A stretch of 64,000 bases of DNA, from assembly GCA_965248255.1 (NCBI GenBank), contig CBDFIW010000003.1:545239-609238 (forward strand), written 5' to 3'. Positions 1 to 46,539 of this stretch are shown here, piece after piece. Source of the DNA: Bryobacterales bacterium. GTDB taxonomy: Bacteria > Acidobacteriota > Terriglobia > Bryobacterales > UBA6623. Every line of letters begins with the position of its first letter. Position 1 is the stretch's first letter. A model generated the notes under the pieces. It saw nothing but the letters and a program-made list of their open reading frames with translations, was not told the origin of the DNA and made no database searches. The position numbers and the translations under genes are program-made.

Positions 1-600
1 CTCGCCGTCAAGGCGGGCGCGGATGTTGTCGTCGTCGACGGAATGGAAGGCGGAACCGGCGCGTCACCCGCCATCATGCAGGATCACACCGGGATCCCCA
101 CGCTGGCCGCGGTTTGTGAGGCGCGGCGCGCTCTCGAAGCGAGCGGCGTCTATGGAGAGGTGCAACTGATCATTGCCGGTGGCATTCGTGACGGCGTCGA
201 CGCCGCCAAAGCCATGGCGCTGGGCGCTGATGCCATCTACATCGGTACGGCGGCGCTCATTGCGCTGAACTGCAACAAGCCGCTGTGGGTCGAGGACTAT
301 CACAAGCTCGGCACGGAGCCGCATTTCTGTCACCATTGCCATACTGGCCGATGTCCTGTTGGAGTGACAACCCAAGATCCGGAACTCATGGAGCGGTTGC
401 CCATCGAGGAAGCAGCCGAGCGAGTGACGAACTTACTGCGCGCCATGACCTTCGAGATCCAGATGCTGGCTCGATCCTGCGGGAAGTCGGACGTCCACAA
501 CCTGGAGCCCGAAGACATGGCCGCTTTGACGGCCGAGGCTTCCGCGATTTGCGAAGTTCCCTTGGCAGGCACGAGAAGGGTTTGGGGTGCGCGGGACTGA
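1..600 (+). CDS. glxD: FMN-binding glutamate-synthase-family protein (GlxD / N-methylglutamate synthase gamma subunit, MgsC-like), 5'-partial
   Basis: Frame is open from base 1 (LAVKAGADVVVVDGMEGGTG). It has the FMN-domain motifs IIAGGIRDGVDAAKAMALGADAIYIG and a 3Fe-4S-type CHHCHTGRCPVGVTTQDPEL. It ends soon after that motif, unlike GltB, and lies beside sox-like genes and gmaS. Confidence 0.85.
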   Translation, partial: LAVKAGADVVVVDGMEGGTGASPAIMQDHTGIPTLAAVCEARRALEASGVYGEVQLIIAGGIRDGVDAAKAMALGADAIYIGTAALIALNCNKPLWVEDYHKLGTEPHFCHHCHTGRCPVGVTTQDPELMERLPIEEAAERVTNLLRAMTFEIQMLARSCGKSDVHNLEPEDMAALTAEASAICEVPLAGTRRVWGARD

Positions 601-680
601 ATATGCTTCTTGTCGTTTGATGCAAGCAATGTCTGAAGAAACGTGGCGACTTTTCAGGGCGGAGCGTGACGCGGAAACAG

Positions 681-764
681 CCGAGCCCCGAACGCCAGTG
701 AGGGGTCAAGACGCCCCCCGTTGGCGCAGGAGCAGCGAACCCGTCACTGGCGTTCCGGGCTCGG
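681..764. repeat. Long imperfect inverted repeat (REP-like hairpin) between glxD and soxD
   Basis: CCGAGCCCCGAACGCCAGTGA (681-701) pairs with TCACTGGCGTTCCGGGCTCGG (744-764) at 20/21 positions. Confidence 0.8.
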
Positions 765-857
765 TTTCTCCATTGCCAACTCGTCAGTTTGAGGTTGGGG
801 ACCGCGCTAGCTAGCTGGCCGTGCTCGATCTGCCTGTGTAGCCTTGAGAGATAGCCG

Positions 858-1136
858 ATGTCGTTTCTGATTCCCTGTCCCGAGTGCGGTGGCCGCAGCG
901 TCTACGAGTTTCGGTTCGGCGGTGAGGTATTGCAGCGTCCCCAAGTGGATGCTCCCGAAGAGGAGTGGCACCGCTACCGTTACGTTCGGGAAAACAAGGC
1001 GGGCAACCAAACCGAGTGGTGGTACCACCGGTCAGGATGCCGGCAGTGGCTCCAGGCGGTTCGTAACACCAAGACCAATGAAGTGATCGAGGCCTTCTTG
1101 CCGGAACAGAAGCCGAGGGGGTTGCTTGGCGGCTGA
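858..1136 (+). CDS. soxD: Sarcosine oxidase delta-subunit family (N-methylglutamate dehydrogenase MgdB-like)
   Basis: 92 aa with MSFLIPCPECGGRSVYEFRFGGE and EWWYHRSGCRQW, the Zn-binding SoxD pattern. Confidence 0.9.
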   Translation: MSFLIPCPECGGRSVYEFRFGGEVLQRPQVDAPEEEWHRYRYVRENKAGNQTEWWYHRSGCRQWLQAVRNTKTNEVIEAFLPEQKPRGLLGG

Positions 1137-3804
1137 CAGGGAGGGTCACGACTTTACGTTCTCGTTCAACGGCAAAACGATCCACGCCAACCCGGGCGAC
1201 ACCGTCGGTTCGGCGCTGTTTCGGGCCGGCAGGCGGATCTTCAGCCGGGGGTTTAAGACGCACCGCCCGCGCGGACTGCTGTGCGTGGCGGGGCGGTGTC
1301 CGAACTGCCTGATGAACGTGGACGGCGTGCCCAACGTGCGCGCTTGTACCAGCCCGGTCCGCGCCGGCATCGTCGTCAAGCCTCAAAACGTCTTTCCCTC
1401 GCTCGAATTCGACTGCTTGGCGCCCGCGCAGAAGTTGCTTTCCCCGCTCATGCCGGTGGGCTGGTATTACAAGACCTTCACCAGCCGCCGCGCTTGGAAA
1501 GTCGTCGAGCCCGCGATTCGGCGCGTCGCCGGCTTGGGAGACGCGCCCCCCACGATCGATCAGATCAAGGGAGAGTTCCCTCATTACGAACATATTCACC
1601 TCAACACCGATGTGGCCGTAGTCGGGGGCGGACCAGCCGGGCTGACCGCCGCCCTTGACGAGGCCGGCCGAGGCAGGCGCGTGATCTTGATCGACGATCA
1701 GTCCGAGCTTGGGGGCCATCTGCGATACGCCCGCGACGGGCAAACGGAGGCGGAGGCGCTGCTGGGGCAGGTCCGCGAGTCGGAAGCCATCGAGATCTAC
1801 TCGGGCTCGCAGTGCTTCGGGCTCTACGAGGGCAACTTACTGGGGGTCGTACAGCCACGTTCACTCGGGGCCGCACAAGATCGGTTGATCCACGTCCGCA
1901 CGAAACAGGTGACCGTCGCCACCGGATGCTACGAGGCGCCCTTGCTATTCGAGAACAACGACTTGGTCGGCGTCATGCTCAGCTCCGCCGTCGAGCGGCT
2001 GATTGGGCTCTATGGGATTCAGCCGGGTGAGCGCGCCGTCGTCGTGGGGGAGGGCACGAGGGCCAAGACGATTGCCGCCAGGCTCCGCGAGGCGGGGACT
2101 GATGTCACCGCGATTCTGCCCGTCGGCCAGGTCATCTCGGCAACCGGGCGAGGCAAGGTTCGAGGTGTCCGTACCACCGGTGGTGACGTGCCCTGCGACC
2201 TGCTCGTGATGTGCGGTTATCAGATACCCGATGCCGGACTGTTGCACCAAGCCGGCGGCAAGCTCGAGTGGGACGAAGCGAAAGGCGCTTTTCTTCCGAC
2301 GAAGCTCCCGCCCAACATCACTGCCGCGGGCGAGGTCACGGGCGAAAAGCTGACGCCGGTCCATCCGCTACCACCCGAGACGTTCCCCGACTCGAAAGGC
2401 TGCTACGTCTGCCTATGCGAGGACGTCACCACGCGGGACCTCCGCAAAGCCGTGCACGAGGGCTTTGACCGGATCGAAACGATCAAGCGCTACACGACTG
2501 TGTCGATGGGCCCGTGCCAAGGGCGCATGTGCCAGCTTTCCTCGATCGCCGTGTGCGCGGGGGAGACGGGCCGCTCGATGGCCGAGACTGGTGTGACCAC
2601 GAGCCGGCCGTCGAATCCGCCGGTTTCGCTGGGAGCGCTCGCCGGCCCGCGGCACCCGCCAGTCAAGCGGAGCCCGCTGCATCACGAACACGAGGCCCTC
2701 GGCGCCGTCTGGATGAACATGGGGCAGTGGAAGCGCGCCCGCTATTACCACGGCGACCCGGCTCTCACCGAACGCGAATGTCTTGAAAACGAATACCGGG
2801 CGGTGCGGGAGCGAGTCGGGGTCGTCGACGTCGGACCGCTTGGAAAGATCGAAGTCAGGGGCCGTGACGCAGGCAAGTTGTTGGACAAGATCTATACCCA
2901 TCGCTTCGCCAACCTGAAGGTGGGACGTGTCCGCTACGCTGTCATCTGTGATGACACCGGCATTATTCTTGACGACGGCACCATCTCGCGGCTGGCCCCC
3001 GATCACTACTATCTGACGACGACCACCGGCAATCTCGAGTTCGTGGTGCAGTGGCTCGAGTGGTGGCTGATCGACACGGGCTGGGACGCGCATGTCACCA
3101 ACGTAACCGGCGGCCGCTCGTCGGTGAACGTCGCGGGACCGCGGGCGCGCGAAGTGCTCTCGCTCCTCACAGACATTGATCTCAGCACCGAGGCCTTCCG
3201 CTATATGGCCTGCCGCCAGGGGGGAGTGGCCGGCGCTCCCGCGATCTTGATGCGGATCGGGTTCGTCGGCGAGGCGGGTTGGGAGGTCCACATACCCGCC
3301 GAGTACGGCACGCATGTGTGGCGGTCACTGCTGTCGGCTGGAGAGCCATTCGGTATACGTCCCTTCGGCGTCGAGGCACAACGCATGTTGCGTCTTGACA
3401 AGAAGCACGTAATCGCGGGAGTCGACACCGATGCGTTGAGCAATCCGTTCGAAGCGGACATGGCCTGGGTGGCGAAGCTCGACAAGGACGACTTTATTGG
3501 AAAGCCGGCGCTGCAGAGCTTGCAGTCAGCCGAGATGCGCGAGCGCCTGATCGGTTTTGTCATGACGGACGACAGCCTGCCCGAGGACGGAGCCGCAGTG
3601 GTCGTCGCGGGACGTCCGGCGGGCCGGGTGACGAGCGCGCGCTACTCGCCCGTCAACGGCAGGGCTGTCGGCATGGCTTGGGTGGACGCCGCGCTCGGAG
3701 ATGACGGAAACGAGATCGAGGTACGCGTAGCAGGGAAGCTGGCCAAGGCGCGAGTGCAACAGGCGGCCTTCTACGATCCGGAGGGTAAACGCTTGCGGAT
3801 GTAG
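1126..3804 (+). CDS. soxA: Sarcosine oxidase alpha-subunit family (MgdC-like): 2Fe-2S domain, NAD/FAD domain, BFD-like Fe-S domain and GcvT-like folate-binding domain
   Basis: Motifs FSRGFKTHRPRG, VAVVGGGPAGLTAA, KRYTTVSMGPCQG and GFVGEAGWEVH, plus C-terminal FYDPEGKRLRM. The TTG start overlaps the soxD stop; the exact start is uncertain. Confidence 0.9.
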   Translation: MAADREGHDFTFSFNGKTIHANPGDTVGSALFRAGRRIFSRGFKTHRPRGLLCVAGRCPNCLMNVDGVPNVRACTSPVRAGIVVKPQNVFPSLEFDCLAPAQKLLSPLMPVGWYYKTFTSRRAWKVVEPAIRRVAGLGDAPPTIDQIKGEFPHYEHIHLNTDVAVVGGGPAGLTAALDEAGRGRRVILIDDQSELGGHLRYARDGQTEAEALLGQVRESEAIEIYSGSQCFGLYEGNLLGVVQPRSLGAAQDRLIHVRTKQVTVATGCYEAPLLFENNDLVGVMLSSAVERLIGLYGIQPGERAVVVGEGTRAKTIAARLREAGTDVTAILPVGQVISATGRGKVRGVRTTGGDVPCDLLVMCGYQIPDAGLLHQAGGKLEWDEAKGAFLPTKLPPNITAAGEVTGEKLTPVHPLPPETFPDSKGCYVCLCEDVTTRDLRKAVHEGFDRIETIKRYTTVSMGPCQGRMCQLSSIAVCAGETGRSMAETGVTTSRPSNPPVSLGALAGPRHPPVKRSPLHHEHEALGAVWMNMGQWKRARYYHGDPALTERECLENEYRAVRERVGVVDVGPLGKIEVRGRDAGKLLDKIYTHRFANLKVGRVRYAVICDDTGIILDDGTISRLAPDHYYLTTTTGNLEFVVQWLEWWLIDTGWDAHVTNVTGGRSSVNVAGPRAREVLSLLTDIDLSTEAFRYMACRQGGVAGAPAILMRIGFVGEAGWEVHIPAEYGTHVWRSLLSAGEPFGIRPFGVEAQRMLRLDKKHVIAGVDTDALSNPFEADMAWVAKLDKDDFIGKPALQSLQSAEMRERLIGFVMTDDSLPEDGAAVVVAGRPAGRVTSARYSPVNGRAVGMAWVDAALGDDGNEIEVRVAGKLAKARVQQAAFYDPEGKRLRM

Positions 3805-3831
3805 CCCGGTATCCCGACACCGAGACACCGA

Positions 3832-4506
3832 ATGATGGTTGAAAAAGCTGGCGCCGCTTTGAAACGCACCGCTCTCAGTGACCTCCACGCACGTATGGGG
3901 GTGAGGCGGATAGAGACGTCCGGGTGGGAAGCGACCGATCATTTCGGCGCGCCCGAGCAGGAAGCTCAAAGAACCCGAACGGGCGTCGGGCTCGCCGACT
4001 GCGGTTGGTTACCCAAGTTTCAATTGAAAGGTAACCGATTGGACCGCCCACCCGAGACAGGAGGTGACGGCCGCGCTTGGAAGCTCGGCACAGGCCACTA
4101 CCTTGTCACTTGCGGGTTCGACGAGAAAGATGCTTTGGAAGCGCGCTTGGACTCGCTAAGCCAGGCTCAAACGGAGTCGGACACGCCGCCCTTCTACACA
4201 ACGGATGTGGCCTCCGTGTACGCCTCTCTGCTGCTCGCGGGGCCGCGTAGCAGCGAGGTTCTGCGCAAGTTGACGGACCTAGACATTTCGGGTTCGGCTC
4301 TTCCCGATCTAAGCAGTGCACAGACTGAGATGGAACACGTCCACACCATCGTCATGCGCGAAGACATGGGCGTGCTGCGCGCCTACCTCCTTCTCACGGG
4401 ACGCGAGTTCGGTGAGTGGTTCTGGCAGGCGGTCATGCAGGCCGGCAAGGAGTTCGACATTACGCCGTTCGGCCTCGCCGCGCATCAATTACTGAGGGAG
4501 GCTTAA
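3832..4506 (+). CDS. soxG: Sarcosine oxidase gamma-subunit / aminomethyltransferase-like protein (MgdD-like)
   Basis: GcvT-like motifs GVGLADCG, LLLAGPRSSEVLRKLTDLD and FGEWFWQAVMQAGKEF. It lies inside the sox cluster. Confidence 0.75.
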   Translation: MMVEKAGAALKRTALSDLHARMGVRRIETSGWEATDHFGAPEQEAQRTRTGVGLADCGWLPKFQLKGNRLDRPPETGGDGRAWKLGTGHYLVTCGFDEKDALEARLDSLSQAQTESDTPPFYTTDVASVYASLLLAGPRSSEVLRKLTDLDISGSALPDLSSAQTEMEHVHTIVMREDMGVLRAYLLLTGREFGEWFWQAVMQAGKEFDITPFGLAAHQLLREA

Positions 4507-4525
4507 CGAACCGCCGGAACGCGCC

Positions 4526-5737
4526 ATGCAGCTATTTCGCAACGATCGGATGTGGCGGACGCACGAGTTGAAGCCGAGCTACGACGTCGTGATCATCGGC
4601 GCTGGGGTTCACGGGCTGGCGACGGCCTACTATCTCGGCAAGATGTTCGGCATCCGCAACGTTGCCCTGCTCGAGAAGTCTTATTTGGGCGCGGGCGCCA
4701 GCGGACGCAACACCGCCATTCTGCGCGCGAACTACCGTACGACGCAGGGGGTGGCGTTCTACGATGCGTCCCTCAAGCTTTACAAGAACTTATCGAGTGA
4801 ACTGGGTTGGAACGTGTTGTTTAGCCAGTGCGGCCACATGACCCTAGGACACTCGGACACGGCTGTCTCGGGCCTGCGGGTACGGGCGGAGACGAATCAA
4901 CTCATGGGCGTCAATAGCCGCATCATCGGCCCGGACGAAATCCAGAAACTCGTGCCCGGCATTGACTGTAGTGACCGGCCCCGTTACCCTATCATGGCCG
5001 CGCTTTACCACCCGCCGGGAGGGATCATTCGCCATGATGCGGTCGTTTGGGGCTACGCTCGCGCCTGCGATCGATTGGGAATCGAAATCCACCCCTACAC
5101 GGAAGCGACGGACATCCGGCTGGAGGGCGGCCGGGTGGACAAAGTCGTGACGACGCGCGGCGAGATCGCGGCGGGCGCGGTCGTCAACGCGACGGCGGGG
5201 TGGGCGAGCACGATCTGCGACATGGCCGGCGTACCAATGCCGATCGTGACGCACCCCTTGCAGGCCTGCGTGACCGAGCCCCTCAAACCGTTTCTCGATA
5301 CCGTTATCGTCTCCGCCAGTCTGCATGTCTACGTCAACCAGACGTCGCGGGGCGAGCTGGTCATCGGCGCCGAGATCGACCCCTATCAGTCCTACAGCAT
5401 GAGCAGCACGCTGCCGACGCTCGAACACATGGCCGCCTCGGCGCTGGAGCTGTTTCCTCAGTTGCACTACATCAAAGTCTTGCGCCAATGGGCGGGCATC
5501 TGCGACATGACGCCCGACTTCGCTCCGATCATCGGCGGTTTTGAGGACGTCGGCAACTTCTACGTCGATGTCGGCTGGGGGACCTACGGCTTCAAGGCGG
5601 CGCCCGCGGCCGGCCGCTATCTGGCCGAATTGATCGCCACAAAGAAAGTGCCCGCGGTGATCGCGCCCTTCACTCCAGACCGTTTTCGTAAGGGAGACTT
5701 GGTGGGTGAAAAAGCGGCGGCGGCGGTTTCTCACTGA
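4526..5737 (+). CDS. soxB: Sarcosine oxidase beta-subunit family FAD oxidoreductase (MgdA-like)
   Basis: YDVVIIGAGVHGLATAYYL, GASGRNTAILRANY, HHPPGGIIRHDAVVWGYAR-like segment (YHPPGGIIRHDAVVWGYAR) and GWGTYGFKAAP. Confidence 0.92.
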   Translation: MQLFRNDRMWRTHELKPSYDVVIIGAGVHGLATAYYLGKMFGIRNVALLEKSYLGAGASGRNTAILRANYRTTQGVAFYDASLKLYKNLSSELGWNVLFSQCGHMTLGHSDTAVSGLRVRAETNQLMGVNSRIIGPDEIQKLVPGIDCSDRPRYPIMAALYHPPGGIIRHDAVVWGYARACDRLGIEIHPYTEATDIRLEGGRVDKVVTTRGEIAAGAVVNATAGWASTICDMAGVPMPIVTHPLQACVTEPLKPFLDTVIVSASLHVYVNQTSRGELVIGAEIDPYQSYSMSSTLPTLEHMAASALELFPQLHYIKVLRQWAGICDMTPDFAPIIGGFEDVGNFYVDVGWGTYGFKAAPAAGRYLAELIATKKVPAVIAPFTPDRFRKGDLVGEKAAAAVSH

Positions 5738-5771
5738 CCGGGTCATTCACTAACGAACTGGGGAGGCGAAC

Positions 5772-7106
5772 GTGATAGCGGAAGAGGTGAAGAAGCGGAT
5801 CGAGAAAGAAGGCATCGAGTACTTTCTTTGTTCCTTCGTCGAGATGGGCGGCGCGCCCAAGGCGAAACTCGTACCTGCCACCAACTTCGACGAAATGGCC
5901 AGCGACGGGGCTGGCTTTGCCGGCTTCGCGGCGGGCCATCTCGGGCAGGGCCCGCACGATACCGACATCATGAGCATCCCCGATTTGAAGTCGATGACCG
6001 TTCTACCGTGGCGAAAGAACATCGCCTGGTTGGCCGGGAACCTGCATGTCGACGGCGAGCCGTGGCCCTACTGTCCGCGCACGATCCTCATGCGCCAACT
6101 CGAAAAGGCAAACGCGAAGGGCTACGTTCTCAACGTCGGGGTCGAGCCGGAGTTCATGCTGCTCAAGCAAAACGACGGCGGGCAATTCACCCCCTGGGAC
6201 CCGCACGACCGGCTCGAGAAGCCTTGCTACGACCTGCGCGCCCTGCATCGCAATCTCGATCTGATGACAACGCTGATTGGCTACATGCAGGAAATGGGCT
6301 GGACGCCCTACGCCAACGACCACGAAGACGCCAATTGCCAGTTCGAGATCAACTGGACCTATAGCGACGCGCTGACGACCGCCGACCGCAACACGTTCTT
6401 CAAATGGATGGTGCGCACCGTGGCCGAAGAGCATGGTCTCTGGGCTACCTTCATGCCGAAGCCCTTCGCTCACCTCACCGGCAACGGAACGCATTACCAC
6501 ATGAGTCTGGCCGACGCGAAATCGGGCGAGAACCTGTTCCTCGACGACGGCGCCGACCTCGGGCTCTCGCAACTGGCGCGCTGGTTCATGGGAGGCATTC
6601 TCCGCCACGCCAAGGCCTTGGCCGCCGTGACCGCTCCGACCGTGAACAGCTACAAGCGTTTGACCCGCGGGGCGCCGAGTTCGGGCGCAAGCTGGGCGCC
6701 GGTGTATGTCACCTACGGGCCGTCGAACCGCACGCAGATGATTCGCGTACCCGGTCCGGGGCGCATCGAGAATCGCACGGCTGACGGCGCGTCCAACCCC
6801 TACCTGGCGTGCGCGGCGTCGCTGGCTGCGGGGCTCGATGGGATCGAAAACCAGCTCGACCCCGGCGTGAAGAACAACGACAACCTGTACGAGTTGTCTG
6901 AGACCGAGCTGAGTGAGCGAGGCATCAGCTACTTGCCCACGACCCTGTCGGAAGCGCTCGATTGTCTCGAGCAGGACGATGTCGTAAAGGGCGCCCTCGG
7001 GGAGGCGTACGCACCCTATTACATTCAGGTCAAGAGGGAGGAATGGGGCCGCTACCACCAGAGCGTGAGCCAGTGGGAAACCGATAACTACTTATTAGTT
7101 CATTAG
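5772..7106 (+). CDS. gmaS: GlnT-type glutamine-synthetase-like protein; probable gamma-glutamylmethylamide synthetase
   Basis: KAKLVPA...DGAGFAGFAAG N-terminus typical of GlnT/GmaS, with NDHEDANCQFEINW, TFMPKPF and NRTQMIRVP. It lies in a glxD/sox context. Confidence 0.8.
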   Translation: MIAEEVKKRIEKEGIEYFLCSFVEMGGAPKAKLVPATNFDEMASDGAGFAGFAAGHLGQGPHDTDIMSIPDLKSMTVLPWRKNIAWLAGNLHVDGEPWPYCPRTILMRQLEKANAKGYVLNVGVEPEFMLLKQNDGGQFTPWDPHDRLEKPCYDLRALHRNLDLMTTLIGYMQEMGWTPYANDHEDANCQFEINWTYSDALTTADRNTFFKWMVRTVAEEHGLWATFMPKPFAHLTGNGTHYHMSLADAKSGENLFLDDGADLGLSQLARWFMGGILRHAKALAAVTAPTVNSYKRLTRGAPSSGASWAPVYVTYGPSNRTQMIRVPGPGRIENRTADGASNPYLACAASLAAGLDGIENQLDPGVKNNDNLYELSETELSERGISYLPTTLSEALDCLEQDDVVKGALGEAYAPYYIQVKREEWGRYHQSVSQWETDNYLLVH

Positions 7107-8482
7107 CACCCAAGGCCGTTATCCCTGCATGTTGATCCTATTGACTCCCGCATAATATAGAGTCAGTCAAAACAAAGAGAAGACTGTTTCCAGAAGGCCG
7201 TGATCAAACGCGGTTTGCGGTACATGCGGCGGAGTGCCTTGCGGGCCCGCTCGTTCAGCTCGCCGTAGTCTTTCGGACAGACGTTCGGCAACTCGTGCTG
7301 CTTCCAGTAAGCCCAGATGTATTCCACCGGATTCAACTCCGGCGCATAGGGTGGCAAGTACTCGGTTGCGATGTGGCCTTCGGAGAGTTCGATGAACTCT
7401 TGCACCAGGCGGCTACGGTGCGCCGGCAGCCGATCCCAGACGATCAGCAGCGGGCGATCGATATGACGTACCAACGCCTTGAGAAAGTCGATCACTTGCT
7501 CTTTGCCGATCGCACCGGGATAGAGCCGGAAGTAGAAGTTACGCAGCGTCAGCCCCGCCGAGACGGAAAGCTTCTCCCAGTTGAAGTTAAACTGCAGCAC
7601 CGGTGTTTGGCCACGTGGCGCCCAGGTGCGGCAGCGATGCGGCTTCTGACTCAATCCGCTTTCGTCGATGAAGACGAGCGTACGGCCTTCGTTTTGGGCT
7701 TTTTTTTAATGCGCTTCCAGGTCTTGCGCTTCCAGGTGCGGATCCGCTCTTCGTTGCGCTCGCGCGCCTTTCCGGCCGGGCGTTGCGGGCTCCAGTCGAG
7801 CGCTCGCAGGATCTTCCAGGCGTGGCCTGCGTGGTATGCGACCCCGACTCGTCTCCGATCAGCCGAGCCACCCGCGGACAGCTCCACAGGGGCGTTGGGA
7901 AGCCGTGGGCTTCCGGGCCTTCCAGCAGCAGCGACGTCAGGCGTTCGCGTTGTGCGGCATCGAGGAGCGGCTTGCGTCCGGCGCGCCCGGCCTGGCGGAG
8001 TCCGGCCGCACCCTGCTCGCGGTATTGCCGCCGCCACTCACTGACGGTTTGGCGAGCGACGTTCAGCCGTCTCGCCGTCTCGGACTGATTGTGGCCTTGG
8101 TGGAGCAGCCGCATCGCTTCGAAACGGCGCTTCTCCAGCGCCTTGAAATCCCGCTTCACACCTTTGGGGTTGCCCATACATATATAGATGCTCCACACTG
8201 TCAAAAAGTGTCATAATAATTTGCGGGATTCAATAGGAGGCCTTCCCTCATTAACTGATACAAGGCGTCATGCACAAGAGAACCACGCATGAAATTCAAT
8301 GTGTCAAGAGTTGGTCCTGATGGCCCGTCCCAGGCATAGCCTTCCTTGATTGTGAGCTTGCCCTCCACCGACAAGGCTAGAAACCTTCCGACGATCGGCT
8401 GATCGGGCGTGACCCCAATGTCAACAACATAGCCTGCTTTGAGCTGGTATTTGTAGCCAGTGCGGTACGAAATGCATTCCAT
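7103..8482 (-). pseudogene. DUF1353-like (phage-associated family) gene interrupted by IS copy 1
   Basis: The 5' part (8482-8234) reads MECISYRTGYKYQL...YAWDGPSG...MRGSLVHDALYQLMREGLL. Rejoining across the TA adds only GSTCRDNGLGC* (94 aa), with a stop overlapping the gmaS stop. Confidence 0.6.
7141..8233 (-). mobile_element. IS630-family element, copy 1 (1093 bp; extra 1-bp deletion near 7847 disrupts orfA)
   Basis: TA at 7139-40 and 8234-35. Imperfect terminal IRs TTGACTCCCGCATAAT / ATTTGCGGGATTCAA. HTH orfA and DDE orfB (FIDESG, LIVWDRLPAH, YLPPYAPELNPVEYIW). A8 tract at 7700-7707. Confidence 0.95.
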
Positions 8483-8535
8483 CGTCACAGCCTCCTTTGG
8501 GCGAACAAGAGCGGGATGCGGACCGGTTCCAGGGC

Positions 8536-9498
8536 CTAGTAAAAGAAAATCACATGCGGCAGGATGTGGCGGTCTTCACCCTCGCTCGGCCGGCACGGGC
8601 CGCAGGAGATCTGGTAACCAGCTTGGGCATCTTGAATCACTGCCGGCAGGGATTCCCACCGGTTGCTCCCCTGATGCACGTCGACCATTAGACGGGGTTT
8701 TTGCGTCTGAAGGATTTGCACGGCTCCTTGGAGGACTTCGACCTCGGCGTTTTCCACATCGATCTTGATGAAATCGACGGACGGGAGCCCCAGGTCAGCC
8801 ACAATGTCGTCGATCCGCCGAACCGGCACGTCCAGCTCGCCGGCGCCCAGTTGATGGACAAAACTATTCCACGACGAGTAGTCTCCTATGTAAAGAGTGA
8901 GCGTAGTGTTCTCGTTCCACGCTCCGTTGGCAACGACGACCACCCGGCCGCTTTCGATCTCCTTTGCAAAGTTCCGGCGCAGGCATTCCACGTTCTGTGG
9001 ATAAGGCTCGATCGCAACGACCTGCTCGGCGCCGAGTTGGAGAGCTTTGCGCGTAAACACGCCTACGTGGGCGCCAACATCGATGACGATGTCACCCTCA
9101 CGAACGCTTTGGTCGGCACTGGTCGCAGCCACCCAATCATGCTCGGCGATCAAGTAGCCGATTCCCCTTTGCGGACCCTCTTCATGCGGAACCCAAAAAG
9201 GGCCCACCGACGACGAGAACTTCTCGAGGTTGCTACTCACATCCCGCTCAAGCACCCTGACTCTCGATTGCGCCGCCTTGAGCATACGGCTAAAACGCGA
9301 TAGGTCGGCGTAGAACTTGAAGACCCTAGACCAGGTGCACAGAGTTGCCCGGTCCGTCAGCTTCAGACTGATGGCCCAGCCGGCCTGCAGTCCAACCGGA
9401 AGCACGTAGAAATAACCCACAAGGCTAAGGACGGCCACGTAGGCCACTATGAACAACGGTCGGCCACGGGGTTTCTTTGGGGTTGCCTGATGGCTCAT
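8536..9498 (-). CDS. FkbM-family SAM-dependent methyltransferase with N-terminal membrane anchor
   Basis: VIDVGAHVGVF, VAIEPYPQN and DFIKIDVENAEVEVLQGA, preceded by an N-terminal hydrophobic segment. Confidence 0.85.
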   Translation of the reverse strand: MSHQATPKKPRGRPLFIVAYVAVLSLVGYFYVLPVGLQAGWAISLKLTDRATLCTWSRVFKFYADLSRFSRMLKAAQSRVRVLERDVSSNLEKFSSSVGPFWVPHEEGPQRGIGYLIAEHDWVAATSADQSVREGDIVIDVGAHVGVFTRKALQLGAEQVVAIEPYPQNVECLRRNFAKEIESGRVVVVANGAWNENTTLTLYIGDYSSWNSFVHQLGAGELDVPVRRIDDIVADLGLPSVDFIKIDVENAEVEVLQGAVQILQTQKPRLMVDVHQGSNRWESLPAVIQDAQAGYQISCGPCRPSEGEDRHILPHVIFFY

Positions 9499-10495
9499 CT
9501 CTGGATCGGAGGGGGTGATGTCCTCACGAGGTCGAGGGCCTCGTTGCAGGTTAGTATTCGACCCGATCGTGTATACCCCTCGTCAAGCATTGGGCAGTAG
9601 GTGACCTAGTACTTGGTTGCAAAAGTAAGCGTAATTATGACCACTTGGACGAACCTATCTATTTCTCAGGGGTTGCAGAACTTCGCACTTCGTTCGACCA
9701 ACGCCTATCTGTGCGCGAATCCACTGAAAACAAAGACGAGGACAGAATTCCGGAAGGTCATGTGTTATGACGCGCACTTTTGCGATTAAGTACTAGCGGG
9801 AAGGCGAGCGATAGAGATAGCAGTTTAGCTCATCAATGAGTATAACGTCGGCGATCCGGGTTGCCTTTGCTCTGTGACAACGCTCTTGCGAGAAGCAGTA
9901 GGGTGCCTGGATCGCACTCGTCGAACACCGCGTGTCGGATGATACCGACTGTCGCGTTATTCAGTTGCTGCGTGCCGGCTCGCACCGACCCGATGACGAC
10001 GCTGCTCCCTGATTGGCTCCGACAACCGGGAGTGGTCGAAGTAGCGGATTAGGCGGTGACACTCTGGGACGATTTGGACGAGAAAGGAGTTTGCTTTACG
10101 GTGAGCGTCTCCTTATCTGGCCTGCCAGCTGCGCTACTGATGCCGCGCCGCGCTCTCGCACATCGTCCCGCCCGTGGCCGCGAGATTTCGCGTTTGGCGC
10201 TACACCGCAATCCCTGCACCAAGACGTTAGCCCTGTCGTGAGTCACAGGTTCTTGGGGCGGTCAAGGCCCTTGTTTTCAGTTACTTCAATTTGTAGATCG
10301 CCATCAGGCGGGAAACCTCGCGCTACACTGGAACTGGAACGGCTCTCGACGGCCGCGACCCGGGATGCATTCGTTCCTATGGACCGGTACCCCCTTGCCG
10401 AGTGGCAAGCGTAAGGGAGCGCTTCTACTCACGACCGGCCCAATCACAGCCGGCGAGCTCCATTCCAAGACGTCGCATCCACTCAAGGGAAGCAC

Positions 10496-11446
10496 GTGGT
10501 CTTCAAGACTCAGCCAGACGACACCGGCAAGCGGCTGGACCTCTTCCTCGCCGAACACATGCCCGAAGCAAGCCGCGCCCGAATCCAGGCATGGATTCGC
10601 GCCGGGCGCGTCGACGTGAACGGTACGGCAGGCAAGGCGTCGGTTCGGTTACGGGGCGGCGAGACCATCAGAGTTGACCCCGCGCCCGCACCGCCGCTCA
10701 AGGCCTTCCCCGAGGAGATCGACCTCGACATCCTCCATGAAGACGGCGACCTGGCCGCCATCAACAAGCCCGCCGGCATGACCGTCCACGCCGGGGCCGG
10801 CAAAGCCGGAGGGACTCTCGTCAATGCCCTGCTCCACCATTTTGGGTCGCTGTCGACAGTGGGCGGTGACGTGCGTCCGGGGATCGTCCATCGCCTCGAC
10901 CGTATGACCAGCGGTGTGTTGCTGGTCGCCAAGAACGACAGGGCCCATCGCACACTCGCCCAGCAGTTTCAATCACGAAAGGTGAGGAAAGTTTATTGGG
11001 CGCTGGTGGAAGGCGATTCCACGAAGCCGGCGGCCCAGGGCTGCTCTGTCGAAGTAGACGGCGTGCGCTGGACGAGGCTCGAAATGCCCATCTCGCGCGA
11101 CCCACGCCGGCGCATCAAGATGGCTGCCCGCCGTCAGGGAAGGACGGCGCTCTCCGACTTTCGGGTGCTGCGCCGGCTGGGGAATTGCTCGCTCGCCGAG
11201 GTACGCATCGGCACAGGCCGTACGCACCAGATCCGCGTTCACCTGTCGGCCATCGGCCATCCGGTGGTAGGCGACACGCTGTACGGGGCGGCGCGACGCC
11301 CCACCGGAAGACCAGGGTCGGCGCGGTTCTATCTGCACGCCAAAGAGATCGGCTTCGAGCACCCCACCCGCGGCGAGGCCATGACGATCGAGGCGCCGCT
11401 GCCTCGAGACTTCTCCGAGATGATCGACAGCCTAGCTGCCGGGTGA
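10496..11446 (+). CDS. rluD: RluA-family 23S rRNA pseudouridine synthase with S4 domain
   Basis: RLDLFLA S4 domain, INKPAGMTVH, RPGIVHRLDRMTSG and GTGRTHQIRVHLSAIGHPVVGD. Confidence 0.92.
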   Translation: MVFKTQPDDTGKRLDLFLAEHMPEASRARIQAWIRAGRVDVNGTAGKASVRLRGGETIRVDPAPAPPLKAFPEEIDLDILHEDGDLAAINKPAGMTVHAGAGKAGGTLVNALLHHFGSLSTVGGDVRPGIVHRLDRMTSGVLLVAKNDRAHRTLAQQFQSRKVRKVYWALVEGDSTKPAAQGCSVEVDGVRWTRLEMPISRDPRRRIKMAARRQGRTALSDFRVLRRLGNCSLAEVRIGTGRTHQIRVHLSAIGHPVVGDTLYGAARRPTGRPGSARFYLHAKEIGFEHPTRGEAMTIEAPLPRDFSEMIDSLAAG

Positions 11447-11603
11447 TGCCGACCAAGGCCACGGACCGATGCGAGATCCGTACGAGCGAAGCACTAGCAA
11501 ACGGGTGCGCGACACAAACGTGCTGCTTCGAGAATGTAGCTGTATTGATGGGCCCAGCCCGATTCCTCCGAACTCAGGTTCGCGCAGTGGCTCCCCCAAC
11601 GCC

Positions 11604-11633
11604 GTAGGGGCGGGCCCCGTGCCCGCCCCCTAC
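11604..11633. repeat. GTAG-type REP-like palindrome
   Basis: GTAGGGGCGGGCCCCGTGCCCGCCCCCTAC; near-identical copy at 17703. Confidence 0.75.
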
Positions 11634-11721
11634 CAGGACTTCACAGATCCCGAGTAGTATATCTCGCGCACCCCTGGAAAACCAGCAAACCGGGACCGCT
11701 TTGGACGCGTGGACGAGACGC

Positions 11722-11727
11722 TATAAT
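11722..11727 (+). promoter_or_regulatory. Candidate sigma70 -10 box for the VWA gene
   Basis: Perfect TATAAT 22 nt before the ATG at 11750. Only a weak -35 (TTGGAC) is visible. Confidence 0.45.
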
Positions 11728-11749
11728 GAGGTCGCCGGTTGGCGTGAAT

Positions 11750-12703
11750 ATGAAGCGGTGGTTTGCAGTCTTGCTCCTTGGCGGGGCGCTTTGGGCCCAA
11801 AGTACCCAGCCCATCGGCAGTGAGACCAGCGAGGCGCCGCCGTTGCTCGACCTCAACACCACCATCCGCGTGGACGTCTCGCGCGTCCCGCTGCTGTTCA
11901 CTGTTACCGACAAGAAGAACCGCTTCATCACCAACCTCGGCCGCGAAGACTTTCGTGTGTTCGACAACAAGGTCGAGCAGGACATTCGCGAGTTTGTGCG
12001 CGAAAGCGAGCTGCCGCTACGCATCGGCATCCTGGTCGACACGAGCAACAGCATCCGCGGGCGCTTCAAGTTCGAGCAAGAAGCCGCGATCGAATTCATC
12101 CGCAGTGTCTTGCGCGAGGAGCGGGACAGGGCCTTCCTCGTGAGCTTCGACACCCGCGCCGAGTTAATCGTCGATTTCACAACTGATCCTGAGGAGTTGG
12201 CGCTGGGCGTACGCCGCCTGCGCGCCGGCGGCGGAACAGCCCTCTACGACGCCATCTATTTCTCCTGCCGCGACAAGCTGCCCGAAGACTGGCCGCCCGA
12301 GCAATTCCGCCGGGCACTGGTCATCCTCGGCGACGGCGAAGACAACCAAAGCACCGTCACACGTGACATGGCGCTCGAGATGGCACACAAGGCCGAAACC
12401 GTGATCTACACGATCTCGACCAACCGCAGCGGCAAGCAGATTGCGGGCGACAAAGTTCTGCGCAAGTACGCGCGTGAAACCGGCGGCTTGTCGTTCCACC
12501 CGTTTCAAGCCCGTGACCTCGAACAGTCATTCGCCAACATCGCCAACGAGTTGCGGCATCAATACTTCATCCTGTACTCGCCGAAGGATTTCGCCGCTGA
12601 CGGAACCTTCCATCGTGTCCAGATCAAGACCCGCGTCAAGAACACGCAGGTGCGCGTACGGCGCGGCTACTATGCACCCCTGCCCGGCGAAGAAATACGC
12701 TAG
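11750..12703 (+). CDS. Secreted VWA-domain protein (acidobacterial VWFA-related family)
   Basis: Signal peptide MKRWFAVLLLGGALWAQ, TIRVDVSRVPLLFTVTDK, MIDAS-like DTSNS and TALYDAI...LGDGEDN. Confidence 0.88.
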   Translation: MKRWFAVLLLGGALWAQSTQPIGSETSEAPPLLDLNTTIRVDVSRVPLLFTVTDKKNRFITNLGREDFRVFDNKVEQDIREFVRESELPLRIGILVDTSNSIRGRFKFEQEAAIEFIRSVLREERDRAFLVSFDTRAELIVDFTTDPEELALGVRRLRAGGGTALYDAIYFSCRDKLPEDWPPEQFRRALVILGDGEDNQSTVTRDMALEMAHKAETVIYTISTNRSGKQIAGDKVLRKYARETGGLSFHPFQARDLEQSFANIANELRHQYFILYSPKDFAADGTFHRVQIKTRVKNTQVRVRRGYYAPLPGEEIR

Positions 12704-12761
12704 CGGTTGCGGCCTGCCATTCGCTGCCTTCCGTCACGGTCGAAGAAACGTCTTGACCCAC

Positions 12762-12790
12762 TTTCGCTTTTTATTCGCCTTTGGTACAAT
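12762..12790 (+). promoter_or_regulatory. recA promoter: extended -10 (TGGTACAAT) and candidate LexA box TTTC-N7-ATTC
   Basis: TG-n-TACAAT at 12782-12790. A direct repeat with 11-bp period at 12762-12776 resembles the GTTC-N7-GTTC LexA box and overlaps the -35 region. SD GGAGG at 12821. Confidence 0.55.
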
Positions 12791-12835
12791 CTCGTATCAG
12801 GGGTGGATTTGAGACCACAAGGAGGAGTGAACGAT

Positions 12836-13927
12836 ATGGACGAACGTGAACGCACGCGCAGCCTCGAGCACGCGCTAGGTGAGATTGAGCGGGCCCATGG
12901 GAAGGGCTCGATTGTACGGCTGGGCTCGCGGGAGGCATTGGTTCCCGTGAGTGTGATCCCTACCGGGTCGCTGGCGATCGACAGCGCCCTCGGCGTCGGC
13001 GGGCTGCCGCGCGGACGGCTGGTGGAGATATTCGGTCCCGAGGCATCCGGGAAAACAACTTTGGCCTTGTCAACGGTCGCACAAGCACAGAAGTTGGGCG
13101 GCATGGCGGCGTTCATCGACGCCGAACACGCCATGGACCCCATCTACGCCCAGCGCCTCGGCGTCGACGTGGACAACCTTCTCGTGTCACAGCCCGACAG
13201 CGGCGAGCAGGCGCTGCAGATCGCCGACGTATTGGTGCGGTCGGGCGCGATCGACATCTTAGTCGTCGATTCGGTGGCGGCGCTGGTGCCGCGCGCCGAG
13301 TTGGAGGGCGAGATGGGCGACATGCACCTCGGCTTGCAGGCTCGGCTGATGTCACAGGCACTGCGGAAGCTGGCCGGGGTGGTCTTCAAGTCGAACACCT
13401 GCTTGATCTTCATCAACCAGATCCGCGAGAAGATCGGCGTCATGTTCGGCAGTCCGGAAACGACGACCGGCGGGCGCGCGCTGAAGTTCTACACGTCGGT
13501 GCGCATCGACATCCGGCGCATCGCGGCCATCAAGGACGGCGATAGGATCGTCGGCAATCGCACTAAGGTGAAAGTAGTGAAGAACAAGGTCGCCGCGCCC
13601 TTCCAGCAAGCTGAGTTCGACATCATGTACGGCGAGGGGCTGTCGCTCGAAGGCGATCTGCTCGACCTGGGTGTCGTCAATAAGCTGGTGGCGAAGAGCG
13701 GCGCGTGGTATTCCTACGGCGGCGACCGCATCGGACAGGGCCGCGAGAACGCCAAGCAGTTCTTGGGCGATCACCCGGACTTGCGGGACCGGCTGGAACT
13801 CGAGCTACGCCAGGCGTTAGGTCTGCACATTCCGGCTGAAGCCGAAGCCCAGCCGGGGCCGGAAGCCGTGGAAGAAACACCCCAGGCGGAGCCGGAGCGA
13901 GGTTCGCAACGGGCAGCACAGGCGTGA
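12836..13927 (+). CDS. recA: Recombinase A
   Basis: [48 protein letters not shown]. The ATG at 12836 follows a GGAGG SD. Confidence 0.99.
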
Positions 13928-14069
13928 CCCGCCGGTTGTAGGGCAGCGTGCTAGGCCCAGCAAGTGAGGCAACGGTCCGGCCTGGCCGTCGCGCGATTTT
14001 TCGCAAGACAGGATCGTTATCTGGCTAAGGGCTGCGCCCTTGATATCCCAATGGAACCGCGACGAAAAA

Positions 14070-14147
14070 GTAGGGGCACAGCATGCTGTGCCCGTGTTAG
14101 GGTCAAGCCGTCCGTTCGAAACCGGGCACGGCATGCCGTGCCCCTAC
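14070..14147. repeat. Inverted doublet of GTAG-type REP-like palindromes (REPIN-like)
   Basis: GTAGGGGCACAGCATGCTGTGCCC (14070-14093) and GGGCACGGCATGCCGTGCCCCTAC (14124-14147). Confidence 0.8.
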
Positions 14148-14175
14148 ATTGTCCTTGACCAAGCCACAACCGATC

Positions 14176-15774
14176 ATGGCTCGCGAGACATTTGACGTTT
14201 GCGTGATCGGTTCCGGCGCGGCAGGTGGAACGCTTGCCGGCCAACTCGCTGAGTGCGGGGCCCGCGTCGCTTTGATCGAGGCAGGCGGCTACCGCGACCC
14301 GGCCAAGCTCCGCACGCACGCCTGGCCGTACGATCAGGTGCGGCCGCCGGTGATCCCGGAGGTCACCACCGATCCGGAGCGCGAGCCGGTCGAATACGCC
14401 GGCGATACCATCTCGGTAGGCCGCGGTCGCGTGCTGGGCGGCCGTACGACTCACTGGAACGCGGTCGCGCTGCGCTTCTCAGAAGATGACTTCCGCGAGT
14501 GGTCCGTCAACGGCAGCGAGGAGGATTGGCCGCTCAGCTACCAAGAGTTGGCGCCGTACTACGACCAAGCCGAAGAGCTGATGGTCGTTTGCGGTACTCG
14601 CGAAAACCTCGAGGTTCTGCCCGACGGACACTTCATCCCGCCGCTCCCATTGCGGTGCTCGGAGAAGATCCTCAGCCGCGCCGGCAAGAAGCTGGGCATG
14701 CGCGTGATCCCGGTGCGCAAGGCTCTGGCGACCGGCGACGGTCACGGACGCGCGCCGTGCCACTGCTGCGGCCACTGCATGGAGGGATGCGGCGTGTCGG
14801 CGATCTTCAACACAGCCGAGCACGTGTTGCCGAAGGCGCGGGGCACGGGCCGCCTCACGGTTCGCTCAGGCTGGATGGCGCGTGAGCTGCGGACAGACCA
14901 AGAAGGCCGTGTGCGCGCGGCGATGATCTTCGACCGTGAGAGCAGGCGGGAAGACGAGGTCCGCGCCCGAGTCTTCGCCGTGTGCGGCGGCAACATCGAG
15001 TCGGCGCGACTACTGTTGAATTCACGCTCGCAGCGCTTCCCGAACGGCCTGGCCAACAACAACGACATCGTAGGACGGTACCTCCACGGGCATGTGACTG
15101 CCGAGGTCTTCGGCTACTTGAAAGAGTTGATCCGAACGAAGTCGACGAACCGGGATGGTGCGCTCGACCACGCCTACATCCCGCGCTTCCCTCCCCTCGG
15201 GCGAACCGATTACGTCGGAGGATTCGGCATTCAGCTCAACGTGCGCTCGTATATGAGACCGCACCAGGCGTGGCATGTGCCGGGGTTCGGGCTGGACTTC
15301 AAGCAGCGAGTCCGCGACCTGCAACCGGCGCAGACGTCGGCCCTCACGTTCGGGAAGGTTGTCGCACACCCGGACAATCGTGTCACGCTGCACCCCACGC
15401 GCCGGGACGACTACGGGCTGCCGGTCCCGCGGGTGCGCTTCCGGTGGCAACCGAACGACATGGCCATCTACGAAGCTATGCTCGACGCCTGCCATAAGAT
15501 GTACGACGCAGCCGGCGTAGCGTTCCGCATGGAGCGACGCGGCGGCCCGCAAGGGTTCGCCTCCCACGAGGTCGGTTGCGTGCGCATGGGGAGGGATCCC
15601 AAGACATCAGTGCTCAACCGGTTCAACCAGGCACACGAGGTGAAGAACCTGTTCGTCGTCGATGGGAGCAGTTTTACGTCCTTCCCAGAGAAGAACCCCA
15701 CGCTGACGATTGTGGCGTTGGCCATTCGAGCGGCGGAAAACATTCAGCGGCTGCGAGGCCGCGGCGAGTTGTAA
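14176..15774 (+). CDS. GMC-family FAD oxidoreductase
   Basis: FDVCVIGSGAAGG, GRVLGGRTTHW, HEVGCVRMG and NLFVVDGSSF...NPTLTIVALA. Confidence 0.9.
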   Translation: MARETFDVCVIGSGAAGGTLAGQLAECGARVALIEAGGYRDPAKLRTHAWPYDQVRPPVIPEVTTDPEREPVEYAGDTISVGRGRVLGGRTTHWNAVALRFSEDDFREWSVNGSEEDWPLSYQELAPYYDQAEELMVVCGTRENLEVLPDGHFIPPLPLRCSEKILSRAGKKLGMRVIPVRKALATGDGHGRAPCHCCGHCMEGCGVSAIFNTAEHVLPKARGTGRLTVRSGWMARELRTDQEGRVRAAMIFDRESRREDEVRARVFAVCGGNIESARLLLNSRSQRFPNGLANNNDIVGRYLHGHVTAEVFGYLKELIRTKSTNRDGALDHAYIPRFPPLGRTDYVGGFGIQLNVRSYMRPHQAWHVPGFGLDFKQRVRDLQPAQTSALTFGKVVAHPDNRVTLHPTRRDDYGLPVPRVRFRWQPNDMAIYEAMLDACHKMYDAAGVAFRMERRGGPQGFASHEVGCVRMGRDPKTSVLNRFNQAHEVKNLFVVDGSSFTSFPEKNPTLTIVALAIRAAENIQRLRGRGEL

Positions 15775-46442: not shown

Positions 46443-46539
46443 GGACGCTACAACCACGCCGCCTCAGGTAGGCGGCATAGCCCCGGAAGGGGCGATACAT
46501 ACAGAGCCCGGGATCTGCTCTCGAAACCGCAGGCCACGC

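Follow-up and report, generated by a model that had tools for sequence, protein, structure and literature searches.

Methylamine is a common decay product that serves as a source of both nitrogen and carbon, its known bacterial consumers being mostly Proteobacteria and, in part, Actinobacteria. The gene cluster of the N-methylglutamate (NMG) pathway, consisting of gmaS, mgsABC and mgdABCD, is known from Methyloversatilis universalis and Methylocella silvestris. For the Acidobacteriota, which are among the most abundant soil phyla, the literature library searched yielded no relevant paper connecting gmaS or N-methylglutamate with this group or with Bryobacter or Solibacter. The subject of the present study is the beginning, positions 1–7106, of a stretch of 64,000 nucleotides (the whole of it being called here the window) from contig CBDFIW010000003.1 of a Bryobacterales bacterium (assembly GCA_965248255.1, positions 545,239 to 609,238). 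Of the eight-gene operon glxB-glxC-glxD-soxD-soxA-soxG-soxB-gmaS, this region covers the distal three quarters; the genes of the operon are presumably co-transcribed. It is proposed, with a probability of roughly 0.78, that the operon encodes the NMG route for methylamine and that its SoxDAGB enzyme forms a separate branch bearing iron–sulfur (Fe–S) sites. The pathway itself is known; what is new is its regular presence in Acidobacteriota, a non-orthologous dehydrogenase module with putative Fe–S sites and a gene order of its own, and a clade-wide change in the pocket of GmaS.

One of the closest described systems is the proteobacterial NMG cluster, which was examined in Aminobacter aminovorans pAA01 and Thioclava sp. 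FTW29 and is built from the same eight gene families. It shares with the window a GmaS of the same clade with all catalytic residues, the split GltB domains and a four-subunit dehydrogenase possessing a folate domain; PurU is encoded next to some of these clusters, as it is in relatives of the window. The differences concern the gene order—glxB-C-D-glnT-soxB-D-A-G in Aminobacter and Thioclava, and soxB-D-A-G ... glnT-glxBCD on an Acinetobacter plasmid, against glxBCD-soxDAGB-gmaS in the window type—as well as the regulator, which is GlxA in the proteobacterial cluster and a divergent GntR/FCD protein in the window-type loci. They concern, above all, the dehydrogenase: the Sox-like subunits of the window exhibit only 32–44% identity to the proteobacterial Mgd proteins and fall outside the clade uniting Mgd with true sarcosine oxidase, the alpha subunit is ~90–130 residues shorter than the proteobacterial MgdC and contains eight conserved cysteines that MgdC lacks, and the gamma subunit is, unlike its proteobacterial counterpart, a plain GcvT fragment. 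Heterotetrameric sarcosine oxidase (TSOX; soxBDAG, PDB 2GAG and 1X31/1VRQ) consists of the same four subunit families with the same domain order in alpha, and the window beta subunit is 45% identical to that of TSOX; TSOX has, however, lost all cysteines of both motifs discussed below, its genes follow the order B-D-A-G instead of D-A-G-B, and its context is that of betaine/sarcosine genes rather than of gmaS and glxBCD. Finally, HcnABC, the opine and D-hydroxyproline dehydrogenases and the L-proline dehydrogenase PH1363/PH1364 from Pyrococcus, which are metal-containing relatives of the sarcosine-oxidase family, have in common with the window enzyme the Fer2_4-type cysteine motif, the pattern C-x-C...C-x4-C after the Rossmann fold and a partner from the DAO family, but they are without the fused GcvT domain, delta and gamma, and act on other substrates.

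Listing and translation of the open reading frames (ORFs) revealed six frames running in the same direction and separated by small intergenic gaps (Table 1), with profile search scores far beyond chance for all of them. An earlier note on this DNA, made from the letters alone, had named a glxD-like gene, soxD-A-G-B and a GlnT-type gene on one strand, and all six were found at those places. The five complete genes agree in length with their orthologs.

Table 1 Features of the operon in the window and gene orders of related modules (positions refer to the window unless a contig is named)
Feature	Positions	Strand	Evidence or remark
glxD/mgsC, 3' part (199 codons), predicted FMN-binding subunit of NMG synthase	1..600	+	Pfam Glu_synthase E 9e-45; 5' part beyond the left window edge
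glxD-soxD spacer, 257 bp	601..857	+	long imperfect hairpin at ~679-766, stem ~27 bp; median ~23 bp in relatives
soxD-like, delta subunit, 92 aa	858..1136	+	PF04267 E 1e-25
soxA-like, alpha subunit, 892 aa	1126..3804	+	Fer2_4, Pyr_redox_2, SO_alpha_A3/Fer2_BFD, GCV_T, GCV_T_C
SoxA, codons of Cys53, Cys58, Cys61 and Cys74 (C-x4-C-x2-C-x12-C)	1282..1347	+	Fer2_4 type, putative [2Fe-2S] site
SoxA, codons of Cys429, Cys431, Cys464 and Cys469 (C-x-C-x32-C-x4-C)	2410..2532	+	BFD-like, putative [2Fe-2S] or Fe(Cys)4 site
SoxA, GcvT-like folate-binding domain and C-terminal barrel	2677..3801	+	PF01571 E 8.5e-73; PF08669 E 3e-19
soxG-like, gamma subunit, 224 aa, truncated GcvT fold	3832..4506	+	GCV_T PF01571 E 9e-21
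soxB-like, beta subunit, 403 aa, predicted flavin-dependent catalytic subunit	4526..5737	+	DAO PF01266 E 6e-73; TIGR01373 453 bits
gmaS (glnT-type), predicted gamma-glutamylmethylamide synthetase, 444 aa	5772..7106	+	TIGR03105 608.6 bits, cut-off 469.6
GmaS, codon of Ala181 (position of Gln175 in Rhodovulum GmaS)	6312..6314	+	Ala in all 59 clade orthologs
L086, glxB-C-D-D'-GS-soxD-A-G-B-purU			beside tRNA-intron endonuclease and IF-2B-family gene, archaeal-looking
L088, GS-glxB-C-D-GntR-soxD-A-G-B-FTHFS-cyclohydrolase-FolD			Cys-bearing representative
L084, soxD-A-G			Cys-bearing representative
L090, soxD-A-G			Cys-bearing representative
L089, amine oxidase (542 aa)-soxD-A-G-B	1837-8018 of L089		SoxA 40% identical, Cys-bearing; no glx/gmaS in view

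Concerning the ligase, the protein resembling glutamine synthetase (GS) exceeds the cut-off of TIGR03105 (Table 1), compared with scores of 355 for GlnA and 302 for gamma-glutamylputrescine synthetase. Its nearest matches in the PDB are the GmaS 7CQL (450 bits) and 9QUR, the latter named "glutamate--methylamine ligase" (424 bits), whereas the best true GS reaches 294 bits. The former is the enzyme from Rhodovulum sp. 12E13 (RhGmaS; PMC7948447), matched over the full length, and the functional residues were taken from the paper on its structure. In RhGmaS numbering, 17 of the 18 residues checked have been kept in the window protein, including Lys30', Ala48', Tyr147, Asp177, Glu179, Glu186, Asn188, Trp300, Arg312 and Arg317, the sole exception being Gln175. 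The window residues Ala50 (at the site of Asp50' in GS), Trp308 (at the site of the Glu-flap glutamate), Asp183, Glu192 and Arg320 are identical in 59/59 orthologs and, more generally, the residues for ATP, glutamate and the amine pocket are retained in the window protein and in all these orthologs with the exception of Gln175. A neighbour-joining (NJ) tree with two GS outgroups, a haloarchaeal GS-family protein and the Bacillus GlnA, sets the GmaS-type proteins apart with a bootstrap support of 100/100, and the acidobacterial ones form their own clade amid the proteobacterial GmaS lineages; the identity between the window protein and its alphaproteobacterial counterparts (Thioclava, Aminobacter) is ~45–46%. 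The GS-like protein, already taken for a GmaS-type enzyme in the earlier note, thus groups with characterised GmaS and not with GS or other gamma-glutamyl ligases.

The dehydrogenase gives a different picture. All four window subunits stay under the cut-offs of the sarcosine-oxidase families of NCBIfam: 715 against 1164 bits for alpha (TIGR01372), 453 against 529 for beta (TIGR01373), 84 against 116.5 for delta (TIGR01374) and 30.5 against 144 for gamma (TIGR01375). The Aminobacter MgdA and MgdC exceed these sarcosine-oxidase cut-offs with 705 and 1467 bits, respectively. In direct comparison, SoxB scores 349 bits against TSOX beta and 330 bits against Aminobacter MgdA, and SoxA 408 bits against TSOX alpha and 426 bits against Aminobacter MgdC; it should be noted that the reference Mgd proteins are proteobacterial ones defined by their cluster, not those studied biochemically. 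In the NJ tree of SoxB, TSOX beta and the MgdA of Aminobacter and Thioclava stand together, apart from the acidobacterial clade, with a bootstrap support of 100/100. Both the tree and the near-equal bit scores speak against an orthology between the Sox-like subunits and the proteobacterial MgdABCD. The proteobacterial NMG dehydrogenase is thus nearer to true sarcosine oxidase than to the window enzyme, and the Sox-like module represents another branch of the heterotetrameric sarcosine oxidases rather than a shuffled mgdABCD. The separate lineage of the cluster that had been suspected from the gene order alone is thereby placed on firmer ground by the SoxB tree, the scores under the NCBIfam cut-offs and the cysteine motifs.

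From its N-terminus, SoxA consists of a ferredoxin-like domain, an FAD/NAD Rossmann domain, a domain of the A3/BFD-like kind and, finally, a folate domain of the GcvT type; the cysteine and histidine positions of SoxD coincide with those of its Aminobacter counterpart. The two four-cysteine motifs of SoxA, which score 93.5 bits with Fer2_4 and 36.5 bits with Fer2_BFD in Pfam, are kept in 68/70 and 70/70 orthologs, respectively. In the proteins from Aminobacter, Thioclava, Acinetobacter and Dongiaceae and in the TSOX structures, the first-motif cysteines are replaced by T/A, E/D, A/T and T/D, and none of the second-motif cysteines was seen in the Aminobacter, Thioclava, Acinetobacter, Dongiaceae or TSOX proteins compared. 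The first motif aligns with the domain of the [2Fe-2S] cluster N1b in the 75-kDa subunit of complex I, the second one with PH1363, whose cysteine pattern is the same, and with bacterioferritin-associated ferredoxin. At both sites, four cysteines are thus found in the spacing of their family (Fer2_4 or BFD-like) and conserved among the orthologs, and it is most likely that they hold two [2Fe-2S] clusters or one such cluster and one Fe(Cys)4 centre. The SoxA of the Acinetobacter plasmid, annotated as "(2Fe-2S)-binding protein", was considered as a further carrier of the motifs and rejected, since it has none of the eight cysteines, its name reflecting the fold and not the ligands.

The names given to the dehydrogenase by annotation pipelines vary, ranging over "2Fe-2S iron-sulfur cluster-binding protein", "aminomethyltransferase" and "sarcosine oxidase". 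TSOX and NMG dehydrogenase are known to be often mixed up by such pipelines (PMC13236597); the window proteins pose the opposite naming problem, being too distant from either of them to be named. With a dehydrogenase lying under the family cut-offs and variably named, surveys relying on mgd/sox models are expected to under-count or mislabel the pathway.

The sequence left of base 1 was approached through a SoxA 97% identical to that of the window (P0001), which led to a 525-kb metagenome contig, L079; an exact look-up of the window SoxD and SoxB matched no record. L079 is colinear with window positions 1–7110 at ~95% nucleotide identity, the window glxD corresponding to its positions 8606–9419, and its genes follow one another as glxB (309 aa, N-terminus MCGIVG), glxC (GXGXG), glxD (444 aa), soxD-A-G-B and the GS-like gene. 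Since GlxB of L079 begins with MCGIVG, the cysteine nucleophile of the amidotransferase has been retained. The expectation that glxB and glxC would be found left of base 1 was thus borne out in this close relative and, beyond it, in 57 of 76 related loci. GlxB, GlxC and GlxD are three domains of GltB present as separate proteins; the GlxD fragment of the window shows 96% identity to the C-terminal part of the 444-residue GlxD from another relative (L002) and 55–57% identity to GlxD of the proteobacterial NMG clusters. The genuine glutamate synthase genes noticed earlier elsewhere in the window are indeed there, both on the minus strand: gltB at 46540–51132 (1770 bits) and gltD at 44979–46457 (706 bits).

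The 76 loci used for synteny originate from species-representative genomes, almost all of them acidobacterial. All eight genes are colinear (glxB-C-D-soxD-A-G-B-gmaS) in the 57 loci mentioned, which cover several orders, so that a complete conserved NMG-type operon occurs in at least 57 species-level genomes. The order D-A-G-B is seen in 67 loci, the soxG-like gene occupying the same position in each of them, and B-D-A in just one, an alphaproteobacterial contig from Dongiaceae. The median gaps, 23 bp between glxD and soxD and 35 bp between soxB and gmaS, are short, which is consistent with a single transcription unit. A divergent regulator of the GntR/FCD type is a frequent neighbour (37 loci), as are PurU (17 loci) and an outer-membrane barrel of the TonB-dependent type (13 loci), and the closest relatives of the cluster come from metagenome-assembled genomes (MAGs) of Bryobacterales (85% SoxA identity). 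The contrast drawn in the earlier note between D-A-G-B here and B-D-A-G in Proteobacteria holds for all four proteobacterial NMG clusters compared (Aminobacter, Thioclava, Acinetobacter and Dongiaceae); the description of the order as unusual does not, because D-A-G-B is the rule in Acidobacteriota and in the cysteine-bearing subfamily.

This subfamily was delimited by a search among 1.8 billion representatives, with 134 full-length sequences among the best 150 being analysed. The acidobacterial clade makes up one 50%-identity cluster, and its nearest relatives among the best 150 are the next 24 full-length clusters at the same level, all with both cysteine motifs and with an identity of 33–52%. 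Beyond them follow the "xDxD/DDSS" type (Acinetobacter, Dongiaceae) and then the "xEAT/DQDS" type, covering TSOX and the Mgd proteins of Rhizobiales and Rhodobacterales. The idea that D-A-G-B is specific to NMG clusters had to be rejected, given the module of L089 (Table 1). Instead, D-A-G(-B) is a trait of the cysteine-bearing module, which in several deep lineages is joined to gmaS, glxBCD and genes of folate-dependent one-carbon (C1) metabolism, and such joining supports an N-methyl substrate. The L089 module, near which a gene with a dimethylformamidase C-terminal domain is located, may serve other methylated-amine routes.

Based on the above results, the following route is proposed. GmaS would join methylamine to the gamma-carboxyl of glutamate in an ATP-driven reaction, and the resulting gamma-glutamylmethylamide would be converted to NMG by GlxB, GlxC and GlxD together. 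The SoxD/A/G/B complex would then oxidise NMG to glutamate, the flavoprotein SoxB receiving the electrons and the GcvT-like domain of SoxA being the likely site at which the methyl carbon would be handed to tetrahydrofolate (THF) as 5,10-methylene-THF; the C1 unit would be oxidised via FolD and PurU or FTHFS, the genes of which are not among the window genes scanned. The cysteine sites of SoxA would most likely carry the electrons from the flavins to an acceptor. We know of no natural electron acceptor for NMG dehydrogenase, and an Fe–S-bearing relative of sarcosine oxidase may offer a handle on how electrons leave this enzyme.

The same genes can also be read in other ways. The chemistry might be as proposed with another small primary amine as substrate—ethylamine or a hydroxylated amine—and gamma-glutamyl-alkylamide and N-alkylglutamate as intermediates; RhGmaS accepts ethylamine, propylamine and hydroxylamine (PMC7948447), the alanine replacing Gln175 could make the amine site larger, and the dehydrogenase is not an ortholog of the characterised NMG dehydrogenase. 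This is nevertheless unlikely, since the complete GcvT folate domain in SoxA and the linkage in relatives to PurU or to FTHFS-cyclohydrolase-FolD point to an N-methyl group being released as a C1 unit, whereas a C2 or C3 aldehyde would not fit; moreover, the other amine-pocket residues of the clade are all unchanged. It seems slightly less likely again that soxDAGB encodes an oxidase or dehydrogenase of sarcosine or another N-methyl amino acid, belonging to the breakdown of glycine betaine, creatine or sarcosine and standing as a bystander between glxBCD and glnT. Such a role would agree with SoxB being slightly nearer to TSOX beta than to Aminobacter MgdA, with the label "sarcosine oxidase subunit alpha" given to the orthologs by JGI, with a transporter of the BCCT family upstream in four loci and with the related module accompanied by an amine oxidase in L089. 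It is hard to reconcile, however, with a Sox module lying between glxD and gmaS, at the median gaps given above, in 57 loci across several orders, and with its being re-joined to gmaS and glxBCD in other arrangements in two far more distant lineages (L086 and L088); furthermore, no dimethylglycine or betaine catabolic genes were noticed beside the module.

The remaining possibility, that GlnT and GlxBCD form an alternative pair for ammonia assimilation unrelated to methylated amines, i.e. GS III with a split glutamate synthase (GOGAT), is very improbable, even though this is how the genes were originally named in rhizobia, the NCBIfam title of TIGR03105 reads "type III glutamate--ammonia ligase", and the three Glx proteins correspond to the GltB domains. 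The ammonium-binding Asp50' of GS (changed to Ala) and the glutamate of the Glu-flap (changed to Trp) are both lost, as they are in GmaS, the window also contains both gltB and gltD in full, and four Sox-like genes would be left without a role. The Km of GmaS for ammonium is, in addition, much higher than that for methylamine (PMC7948447).

Several observations weigh against the NMG route for methylamine, which is still preferred here. Since the window starts inside glxD, its own glxB and glxC are seen only in relatives, namely L079 and the 57 of 76 loci, and among the window genes scanned there is no folD, purU, fhs or gene for an ammonium/methylamine transporter. The Sox-like subunits resemble true sarcosine oxidase no less than they resemble the characterised NMG dehydrogenase, so that their substrate is assigned solely through the gene context. 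The exchange of Gln175 for alanine is found in 59/59 GmaS proteins of the clade, the four proteobacterial or characterised GmaS compared all having glutamine and the other six pocket residues being unchanged; in RhGmaS, this glutamine contacts the phosphates of ATP and forms part of the wall of the amine pocket (PMC7948447). The preferred amine could differ, and the exchange lowers the certainty concerning the amine, albeit not that concerning the fold or the type of reaction. NMG is, moreover, also formed from other compounds, e.g. homarine (PMC13236597). Use of methylamine by this host, or by any acidobacterium bearing the cluster, is suggested by gene content. As regards expression, contigs 90–95% identical to soxD, soxA, soxG, soxB and gmaS were found in two metatranscriptomes, a weak indication of field expression for relatives of the operon. 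These contigs represent related populations and not the window genome, and carry-over of DNA is possible.

Tentatively, and at slightly less than even odds, the pathway may have been assembled at least twice: in Proteobacteria with a cluster-free dehydrogenase resembling sarcosine oxidase, and with an older, Fe–S-bearing D-A-G-B module, possibly an O2-independent dehydrogenase, in Acidobacteriota, in certain Thaumarchaeota-like archaea of soils and in further uncultured lineages. In that case, the abundant soil Acidobacteriota, and possibly archaea, would constitute a large unrecognised methylamine sink that current marker-gene and annotation schemes miss or mislabel. In evolutionary terms, the pathway as proposed is a clear example of one route for which non-orthologous members of a single enzyme family have been used.

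It should be mentioned here that two MAGs labelled Thaumarchaeota (L070, positions 4130–14978, and L074) and the archaeal-looking contig L086 (3160–14835) contain, besides glxB-C-D and a GS-like gene, a further glxD-like gene and a soxD-A-G-B module in which both cysteine motifs are present. These occurrences could reflect inter-domain transfer or mis-binning; a literature search found no paper on the NMG pathway in Thaumarchaeota. In Acinetobacter baumannii, the mobilizable plasmid p8E072658 (L083, record positions 96–115 kb) carries a complete NMG-type gene set, soxB-D-A-G, an ammonium transporter and glnT-glxBCD, amid several insertion sequence (IS) elements. In four closely related Bryobacterales (L004, positions 3495–5051, and three further loci), a gene for a BCCT-family (betaine/choline/carnitine) transporter is situated just upstream of glxB, which hints at a quaternary or methylated amine as a possible starting compound of the pathway in those four genomes.

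With regard to the host, the best named relatives of RecA (12707–13927) are from Acidobacteria and Bryobacterales, and the gene after recA carries the acidobacterial VWFA domain TIGR03436. The host is thus a Bryobacterales-like acidobacterium, so that the earlier assignment to a probable acidobacterium stands. None of the three outcomes that had been named in advance as speaking against the cluster—absence of glxBC, a grouping of the ligase outside GmaS and a proteobacterial host—was encountered. The recA ORF as listed encodes 406 residues; its relatives have ~340–365 residues and cover 81–89% of it, which places the true start probably ~45 codons downstream.

As far as the flanks are concerned, the similarity to L079 ends at position 7110, four bases past the gmaS stop, where an element of the IS630 family (~7110–8210) follows directly. 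Its transposase is split over two frames on the minus strand (ORFs 7163–7654 and 7587–8204), owing to either a frameshift or decay. Since the colinearity ends at this element, the downstream neighbourhood of the operon has been rearranged in the window genome. The contig depth over the element is 100–400x that of its flanks (runs X1 and X2), which indicates that this IS has a very high copy number in that community. Positions 32605–33645 encode another, apparently intact IS630 transposase (345 aa).

Scans of positions 1–9000 for promoters and terminators gave nothing over the shuffled expectation and no terminator 3' of gmaS, and the Rfam scan of the whole window detected no riboswitch or other RNA family at threshold, the glxD-soxD spacer being thus without a known regulatory RNA. 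The spacer has a fold z of -2.3 when taken as a whole and contains a self-complementary match, and its contig depth is 10–20x that of its neighbours (runs X1 and X2), for which reason its hairpin (Table 1) is probably a repeat element. L079 possesses small insertions of its own, not found in the window, at the glxD-soxD junction (9414–9688) and at the soxB-gmaS junction (14626–14903). The former is MITE-like, with 23-bp terminal inverted repeats and more copies at 4165–4333 and 20346–20513, the latter is palindromic and common to L002; the two junctions seem to be preferred sites of insertion for small mobile elements.

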